In this document: one piece after another, positions 36,097 through 36,172 of the stretch
Numbering within the stretch: position 1 is the stretch's first letter
How the letters are laid out: every line of letters starts with the position of its first letter
From: Escherichia phage 92CQ
Sequence record: PV682554.1
Strand: one strand, 5' to 3'
Length of the DNA: 64,000 nucleotides
Translations under genes and position numbers: made by a program
The notes under the pieces: generated by a model
What the model was told of the DNA's origin: nothing
Databases searched by the model: none
Seen by the model: only the letters and a program-made list of their open reading frames with translations

Positions 36097-36172
36097 GGTT
36101 CCATAGCTCACTGACGAGAGCGCACACCTCATAAGTGTCGAGGGCAGGGATTGTAACCCTGGGGAACCACCA
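36097..36172 (+). tRNA. tRNA-Met/Ile2 (anticodon CAT), non-canonical D and T loops
   Basis: Cloverleaf folds by hand: acceptor GGTTCCA/GGGAACC, D-stem GCTC/GAGC, anticodon loop cTCATAa, T-stem CAGGG/CCCTG, CCA encoded; D-loop lacks GG and T-loop is ATTGTAA. Confidence 0.5.

Follow-up and report, generated by a model that had tools for sequence, protein, structure and literature searches.

The described tRNAs with which the gene analyzed here can most closely be compared are CAU tRNAs of the phages T5 and T4 and of Escherichia coli. The gene in question, with the anticodon CAT, occupies positions 36097-36172 on the plus strand of a 64,000-nucleotide stretch of DNA (hereafter, the window) from Escherichia phage 92CQ (PV682554.1). 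Global identity to curated CAU tRNAs, which is suggestive only, is highest for T5 tRNA-Ile2(CAU) (T5t23, NC_005859 37086-37163; 68 %), its closest identity-curated relative, and amounts to 64 % for E. coli tRNA-Met and 58 % for E. coli tRNA-Ile2. T5 tRNA-Ile2 shares with the 92CQ tRNA the anticodon loop CUCAUAA, the GGUUC start of the acceptor stem (GGUUCUC in T5), U4-A69, C5-G68, C29-G41, A73 followed by CCA and, if 27-43 of the 92CQ tRNA is read as a mismatch, a non-Watson-Crick combination at 27-43, but its T-loop, UUCGAAU, is canonical and its D-loop contains GG, and T5 encodes a third CAU tRNA (Met). The T4 tRNA-Ile(CAU) combines a GGCCC acceptor with the arm UCCC-CUCAUAA-GGGA, as does the homolog of the 92CQ gene in the T4-like Erwinia phage FBB1, and adjoins tRNA-Thr, as does the copy in Salmonella phage SSBI34; where tRNA sets are minimal, its lineage is retained along with tRNA-Arg(UCU) (F2, S16 and ESCO13 relatives). 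At the T4 tRNA locus of Tequatrovirus F2, only CAT and Arg-UCU tRNAs are annotated, to which ARAGORN adds Asn. The T-loop of T4 tRNA-Ile is canonical and that of the F2/S16/ESCO13 type is AUCGAAA (A54.A58); all of these tRNAs keep both C4-G69 and C5-G68, whereas the 92CQ tRNA has U4-A69. Finally, E. coli tRNA-Ile2 (ileX/ileY) and elongator tRNA-Met have CUCAUAA, A73 and the D-stem GCUC/GAGC in common with the 92CQ tRNA, which is a mosaic of E. coli determinants (U4-A69 as in Met, C5-G68 and C29-G41 as in Ile) and differs from both by non-canonical nucleotides at 15:48, 19:56 and 54.58/60.

The rules by which TilS, TmcA, IleRS and MetRS discriminate between CAU tRNAs apply to the phage tRNA as well, the host being the same. 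E. coli TilS needs C4-G69 and C5-G68, with U4-A69 and A5-U68 acting as negative determinants, and TmcA needs C27-G43, with G27.U43 being negative (PMC2500205, PMC11947777, PMC12514573). The elements recognized by IleRS are A73, C4-G69, U12-A23 and C29-G41, and those recognized by MetRS are CAU, A73, U4-A69 and A5-U68 (PMC9976931), so that C4-G69 is an identity element for TilS as well as for IleRS (PMC2500205, PMC11947777, PMC9976931). With moderate confidence, we predict that the 92CQ gene specifies a functional tRNA of the elongator type and of the Ile2 lineage, with three compensated tertiary pairs, whose C34 would be converted to lysidine and which would read AUA.

ARAGORN reports a tRNA(cat) on the plus strand with boundaries at exactly 36097-36172, and the coordinates, the anticodon, the D-loop without GG and the T-loop AUUGUAA given for it in an earlier note on this DNA agree exactly with both the sequence and ARAGORN. 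The 76 nucleotides comprise 73 nucleotides ending with the discriminator A73 (36169) and an encoded CCA (36170-36172). The acceptor stem is formed by GGUUCCA (36097-36103) and GGGAACC (36162-36168), with U3-A70, U4-A69, C5-G68 and an A7.G66 mismatch; after UA, the D-stem GCUC/GAGC encloses the D-loop ACUGACGA (36110-36117); a single G leads to the anticodon arm, in which CACAC (36123-36127) and GUGUC (36135-36139) flank CUCAUAA (36128-36134; anticodon 36130-36132); and after GAGGG, the last nucleotide of which is G48 (36144), the T-stem CAGGG/CCCUG encloses AUUGUAA (36150-36156). All components of the tRNA form are present, namely, four arms with stems of 7, 4, 5 and 5 bp, a 7-nt anticodon loop with U33 and a purine at 37, a 7-nt T-loop and the discriminator. 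Two pairs of the cloverleaf are irregular: A7.G66, which is conserved in the family (10 of the 25 aligned relatives), and 27-43, which is either a C27.C43 mismatch (ARAGORN) or a C27-G pair followed by an inserted, bulged C at 36139 (Infernal). Judged by its pairs, the tRNA is of the elongator type: it has G1-C72 and C11-G24, and the stem CACAC/GUGUC lacks the three G-C pairs at 29-31:39-41.

Among the nucleotides of the consensus tertiary structure, U8, A14, G18, U55 and G53-C61 are kept, whereas G19, C56, U54, A58 and R15:Y48 give way to A19, U56, A54, U58 and C15:G48, and every partner is changed too. Because the three tertiary pairs have changed on both partners, the L-shape would be preserved. 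The first of these pairs, 19:56, is best seen in comparison with the SSBI34 and FBB1 homologs, in which the D-loop and T-loop are ACUGGYGA and AUCGUAA, as against ACUGACGA and AUUGUAA in the window. The homologs fix the register of the D-loop as A14, C15 (36111), U16, G18 (36113), A19 (36114), C20, G20a and A21, with GA at the usual place of GG, and the T-loop reads A54 (36150), U55 (36151), U56 (36152; paired with A19), G57, U58 (36154; paired with A54), A59 and A60 (36156). In this register, G19:C56 is replaced by A19:U56, and G18 and U55 are kept.

The earlier note had suggested that both contacts of the elbow were lost, that the two losses are coupled rather than a product of random decay, and that an alternative tertiary interaction takes their place. 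The coupling is borne out, both by the homologs (GG with C56, compared with GA and U56 in the window) and by covariation in the set of phage tRNAs used for the tertiary-pair counts (1881 unique tRNAs of the loci retrieved): C56 occurs with GG in the D-loop (1798 of 1831 tRNAs), U56 with GA and no GG (34 of 36) and G56 with GC (6 of 6). The loss itself applies to one contact, 19-56, which is changed on both sides; the other remains, as G18 and U55 are present. Nor does the interaction appear to be an alternative one: it is the same Watson-Crick pair of the elbow in A:U form, and A54...U58 with A60 is a family-wide swap of T54-A58. A19:U56 is also found in the classical T5 tRNA-Ile(GAU), one of the phage tRNAs with U56 and G18-A19 that share the 19:56 pair with the 92CQ tRNA. 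Most of these tRNAs keep T54.A58, whereas the 92CQ tRNA joins the change at 19:56 to the swaps at 54.58 and 15:48.

At 54.58, the partners read as exchanged, with A54.U58 in place of T54.A58 and A60 in place of a pyrimidine. The 54/58 states in the phage tRNA set are U/A in 1579 tRNAs, A/U in 252 and A/A in 26, with any other combination in at most 7; the A/U count is inflated by the search patterns, loci having been chosen for containing such loops, and A54/U58 makes up about 5 % of the phage tRNAs that were not selected on the T-loop. In tRNAs thus unselected, the frequency of A60 is 2 % with U54, 75 % with A54/U58 and 92 % with A54/A58. An A54/A60 signature is known from eukaryotic initiator tRNA, the T-loop of which (A54, A60, m1A58) is similar to that of the 92CQ tRNA in having A54 and A60 for T54 and Y60, but retains A58 and forms an A.A pair, whereas the 92CQ tRNA has U58, an A.U pair and an elongator-type body and belongs to a bacterial system (PMC3950347, PMC7912444). 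We found no evidence that the loop of the 92CQ tRNA discriminates between initiators and elongators, the same loop being present in phage tRNAs of many anticodons. The Levitt pair is swapped as well, with C15:G48 for G15:C48 throughout the subfamily to which the 92CQ tRNA belongs (10 of the 25 aligned relatives). In phage tRNAs generally, C15:G48 is rare (13 of about 1300 class I tRNAs), and 11 of these 13 have the A54/U58 loop. None of the three tertiary patterns is specific to CAU, each being found repeatedly in phage tRNAs with many anticodons. A first scan of viral sequences, in which CTCATAA was forced, gave 70 unique CAU tRNAs; AUCGUAA as a signature of CAU tRNAs was rejected after an anticodon-agnostic viral scan found this T-loop in Ile-GAU, Asn, His, Lys, Ala, Gly, Thr, Pro and other tRNAs.

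T-loops of this kind also occur in cellular genomes. A genome scan for them gave mostly chance matches, with 14 of the 120 loci holding such tRNAs, 11 of them in Patescibacteria; it was considered as a source of isotype information and set aside for that purpose, as it gave cellular occurrence and no isotype. The Patescibacteria chromosomes (loci L115, L139, L144, L154, L174 and others) encode an elongator CAU tRNA with the T-loop AUCGUAA and an A31.G39 mismatch. Within about 2 kb, most of these loci hold another, initiator-like CAU tRNA, which has a 1-72 mismatch in most copies and, in most, the T-loop UGCAAGU or UGCAAAU, with G55 for U55. On two IMG/VR contigs (L027 and L034), a CAU tRNA has A1-U72, the acceptor sequence AGCAGG and the T-arm GAUGG-AUCGUAA-CCAUC; it closely resembles the eukaryotic cytoplasmic initiator tRNA, and a virus of eukaryotes may be its source.

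The general tRNA model of Rfam, RF00005, does not report the 92CQ gene on the plus strand, either at E ≤ 1 (4 kb searched) or at E ≤ 10 (111 nt searched). Its gathering threshold of 29 bits, which the gene does not reach, is passed by 15 other tRNAs of the cluster, and the homologs of the gene score 42.5-48.2 bits. A covariance model (R1) trained on 20 homologs, with phi92-like sequences excluded, matches 36097-36169 with 70.7 bits (E = 3.6e-19); over the window it detects no second CAU tRNA, its second-best match being tRNA-Phe(GAA) at 38321-38395 (48.5 bits). The earlier note had counted rejection by tRNA models as refutation of the gene. RF00005 does reject it, but the score obtained with the homolog-built model, together with the covariation described below, identifies this rejection as a limitation of the general model. 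Probably, the combined changes at 19:56, 54.58 and 15:48 cause the failure of the general model on the 92CQ tRNA while its homologs pass. The gene itself is already in public records and is a member of the tRNA kind: at this locus, the 47 annotated phi92-like GenBank records show tRNA-Met (18), a hypothetical tRNA (2), a hypothetical protein (1) or nothing (26). The phi92 record has 'hypothetical tRNA', and the 18 tRNA-Met labels derive from the anticodon alone. The only Rfam match at the gene, an antisense one to the family 'Plastid-ycf2', was discarded as evidence for Ile2: it is the reverse complement of plastid trnI-CAU and also matches other tRNAs of the cluster.

The window belongs to a phi92-like coliphage (Justusliebigvirus, Stephanstirmvirinae), and about 55 such genomes match its 5-kb tRNA region with 97-98.5 % identity; in OQ108497, the match to bases 36090-36180 has identical coordinates. 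Across five phi92-like loci, four copies of the gene are identical and the fifth differs by one base, that is, by 0-1 changes as in the neighboring tRNAs, whereas up to 31 of the 82 positions of the spacer 36290-36371 differ in the same loci (38 %). The copy in phage VivaForever (L002:1598-1673) has U73 for A73, the sole difference among six phi92-like copies compared. The diverged homologs found by BLAST belong to the phages SSBI34 of Salmonella (Vequintavirinae) and FBB1 of Erwinia and to two phages of Vibrio. The SSBI34 copy differs from the 92CQ gene at 18 positions, 14 of which fall in paired columns and make up seven double changes; a standard pair is regained in six of them (3-70, 4-69, 6-67, 30-40, 50-64 and the long-range 19-56), and at 3-70, 4-69 and 6-67 both sides have changed relative to SSBI34 and FBB1 alike. 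Random placement of 18 substitutions reached the observed pairing in 9 of 20000 trials. In an alignment of 25 gap-free relatives, 95.5 % of the cells are paired, compared with 35-43 % in controls with slid partners, and both sides have changed at 21 of the 24 pairs; a first MAFFT alignment placed a gap in the anticodon stem, and length-matched alignments were used instead. The loop CUCAUAA, A73 and the encoded CCA are perfectly conserved across very divergent homologs. Collectively, these observations show a real tRNA gene under structural selection, which is not decaying because the double changes keep the pairing and the homolog-built model matches.

By descent, the lineage of the 92CQ tRNA appears to be Ile2-like and includes relatives of T4 tRNA-Ile and T5 tRNA-Ile2. 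C4-G69 is present in 9 of 10 members of its subfamily, homologs have mostly C5-G68 and often G27.U43, and the homolog in one Vibrio phage is annotated as tRNA-Ile. The features of Ile2 present in the 92CQ tRNA itself are the CUCAUAA loop with its CAU, C5-G68 and the IleRS elements A73, U12-A23 and C29-G41; those of elongator tRNA-Met are CAU, A73 and U4-A69, with C5-G68 and U3-A70 in place of A5-U68 and C3-G70. The use of codons is compatible with a tRNA that reads AUA: in the open reading frames (ORFs) of the window, AUA is used 9.8 times per 1000 codons, which is 15 % of the Ile codons, and AGA 12.9 times per 1000, both well above E. coli usage. No other decoder of AUA was found in the tRNA cluster, and the 92CQ tRNA is the only candidate because the other CAT tRNA is initiator-like. 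On many contigs of marine origin, a CAU tRNA with AUCGUAA occurs together with a UAU tRNA, and co-occurrence with tRNA-Ile(UAU) was tried as a clue to isotype; the contigs belong to other subfamilies, and the clue is not transferable. On the strength of these features we regard Ile2 as the probable isotype and Met as a rather unlikely one.

Several observations weigh against the Ile2 reading or against a functional tRNA altogether. The 92CQ tRNA is the only member of its subfamily to have lost C4-G69, and the U4-A69 found instead has been documented to act negatively on E. coli TilS and is an element of MetRS (PMC2500205, PMC9976931). If C 36139 is bulged, the anticodon stem opens with C27-G43, the TmcA determinant of tRNA-Met. 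The identities of the T4 and T5 tRNAs were taken from record annotation. The anticodon stem is weak, and the minimum-free-energy fold computed with ViennaRNA contains an alternative anticodon-arm helix and lies 1.8 kcal/mol below the cloverleaf, a preference that would need to be overcome by tertiary contacts and modifications. The relatives used for covariation were chosen by ARAGORN, which favors cloverleaves, RF00005 is silent, and 26 of the 47 annotated phi92-like records leave the gene out. The earlier note's division of the two CAT tRNAs into a Met or initiator tRNA and an Ile2 tRNA is a reasonable one: the second CAT tRNA is initiator-like, and the tRNA at 36097-36172 is Ile2-like by descent but lacks one of the two TilS determinants.

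The loss of C4-G69 is also the starting point of the alternative that survives best, although we hold it to be unlikely: the same structure would be an elongator tRNA-Met, rejected by TilS on account of U4-A69, with C34 unmodified or acetylated, charged by MetRS and reading AUG, the phi92 lineage having switched an Ile2-type tRNA to Met. Not only is U4-A69 negative for TilS and positive for MetRS and C27-G43 the main determinant for TmcA (PMC2500205, PMC9976931), but the phi92-like copy alone has these two changes, and each goes in the direction of Met. Furthermore, an unmodified CAU makes even tRNA-Ile2 a substrate of MetRS (PMC9976931). The identity to E. coli tRNA-Met, higher than that to E. 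coli tRNA-Ile2, and the 18 tRNA-Met labels, derived as they are from the anticodon, point the same way. On the other side stand C5-G68 in place of A5-U68, U3-A70 in place of C3-G70, C29-G41 and the kinship with T4 tRNA-Ile and T5 tRNA-Ile2, the latter of which, a curated Ile2 tRNA, likewise has U4-A69 with C5-G68. In addition, a tRNA-Met would leave the phage without a decoder of AUA, although the sister genus has a clean Ile2-type tRNA. ATG is not enriched in the phage, whereas the codons that the cluster serves, ATA included, are rich in A/U and rare in the E. coli host.

A different proposal concerns the loops rather than the isotype. The A54.U58/A60 loop, combined here with A19:U56 and C15:G48, could be a distinct, undescribed elbow architecture that is repeatedly selected in tRNAs of phages and Patescibacteria, rather than a neutral isosteric variant, because it frees the tRNA from host readers of the canonical T-loop or hides it from them. 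We consider this quite improbable. Neither the A54.U58/A60 class of T-loops nor its combination with A19:U56 and C15:G48 was found in the searchable literature, nor was any mention of A54-U58 or A19-U56 in tRNAs of phages; older tRNA compilations may mention them. If the proposal were true, the host factors that such an elbow could evade would include TrmA, TruB and elbow-recognizing nucleases or defense systems.

Two further readings are very unlikely. A decaying pseudogene of a former Ile2-type gene would explain the rejection by general tRNA models, and the irregular A7.G66 and 27-43, the loss of C4-G69, the greater stability of an alternative anticodon-arm fold and U73 in VivaForever are all in line with it; against it, all but one of the seven double substitutions, the long-range 19-56 among them, lead back to a pair, A7.G66 is found throughout the subfamily and is not fresh damage, the gene is as conserved as the adjacent tRNAs in loci whose spacers diverge by up to 38 %, and the anticodon loop, U8, A14, G18, U55, G53-C61, A73 and CCA are intact. 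Equally improbable is a tRNA-like element of processing or stability that does not decode and provides an RNase P site setting the 3' end of the mRNA of the small upstream ORF (35823-36089) and the 5' end of the cluster transcript: the gene does lie directly downstream of this ORF, with which it has a promoter-like site in common, and the tRNA regions of T4 and T5 do hold stable tRNA-like RNAs of unknown function, but the perfect conservation of CUCAUAA, A73 and the encoded CCA across very divergent homologs points to decoding, and homologs are found in other contexts without the ORF.

For the Ile2-lineage elongator tRNA, a course of expression can be proposed. The gene starts 7 nt past the stop codon of ORF 35823-36089, and upstream of both a consensus scan detects, on the plus strand, a promoter-like TTGACA-18-TAAGAT with TG (35763-35792). 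Comparable sites lie ahead of further tRNA genes in the cluster (36332, 36472 and 37944), all of these promoter calls being consensus matches only, and a terminator-like hairpin lies at the end of the cluster (39265-39289). The site at 35763-35792 likely starts the transcript that carries the tRNA, which would be co-transcribed with the small ORF and released by RNase P and 3' trimming, the CCA being encoded. The modification m5U54 would be excluded because position 54 is A. The TruB consensus for positions 53-61 is GUUYRANYC (PMC7912444), and the corresponding segment of the 92CQ tRNA, GAUUGUAAC, departs from it at 54, 58 and 60, which makes pseudouridine 55 doubtful. Host TilS would then convert C34 to lysidine, and AUA would be read as Ile; if TilS does not accept the tRNA, MetRS would charge it, and AUG would be read as Met.

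The other CAT tRNA of the cluster, at 38573-38651 on the plus strand, is where the earlier note had located it and is, as stated there, the more canonical of the two, with the T-loop UUCAAAU (50.6 bits with the Rfam tRNA model). With its C1xC72 mismatch, A11-U24, 11-nt D-loop, anticodon loop UUCAUAU and U73, it looks like an initiator, and its identity to the curated T5 tRNA-fMet, the separate initiator-like CAU tRNA of that phage, is 70 %; it is atypical in that its anticodon stem has only one of the three G-C pairs typical of initiators. The tRNA-Phe(GAA) gene (38321-38395, plus strand) has a swapped T-loop, AUCGUUA, with A54, U58 and A60, and scores 49.2 bits with the Rfam tRNA model; in the phi92 record it is flagged as a pseudogene despite the 49 bits obtained with the general model.

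A tRNA-like gene on the plus strand at 36372-36453 has the loop CUUCUAA (anticodon UCU, Arg), CCA and an acceptor stem of 7 bp, with only a 7-nt linker in place of the D-arm and a small hairpin in a 23-nt variable region. It reaches 40 bits with the Rfam tRNA model, is missed by ARAGORN and is listed for phage VivaForever as 'tRNA-OTHER'; a promoter-like site of its own lies at 36332-36360, and it is conserved among phi92-like genomes, with 0-1 differences. The tRNA-Ile(GAT) gene (38798-38873, plus strand) has C33 in place of the near-universal U33 (loop CCGAUAA); its counterpart in one phi92-like metagenomic contig (L069:8146-8221) has CUCAUAA, with the anticodon CAU, and that in the sister-genus phage ESCO13 has the canonical CUGAUAA. 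Two identical copies of tRNA-Ser(GCT), at 36652-36737 and 36957-37042 (plus strand), lie about 300 bp apart, where the phi92 record annotates one copy. The segment 36176-36263 (plus strand), downstream of the CAU tRNA gene, holds a 24-codon ORF that is preceded by a strong Shine-Dalgarno sequence, AAGGAGGTG, starts with the ATG at 36189 and extends into tRNA-Leu(TAA) (36204-36289); the GGAG...CUCC segments would also permit a hairpin between the two tRNAs.

For the structure of tRNA, the comparisons made here provide evidence, from natural covariation, of the tertiary contacts 19:56, 54.58 with 60, and 15:48, and indicate that the swap of U54.A58 to A54.U58 is tolerated in hundreds of viral tRNAs. 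Every tRNA with this swap would lack m5U54 and deviates from the sequence that TruB recognizes. For the annotation of phage genomes, tRNA inventories and analyses of codon supply undercount tRNAs of this type, since the general model misses this conserved one and the majority of annotated phi92-like records omit it, and CAT tRNAs called Met from the anticodon alone may be Ile2. In the phage itself, the gene at 36097-36172 would serve as a translation tRNA that supplements the host pool, and its odd loops do not change the kind of gene to which it belongs.

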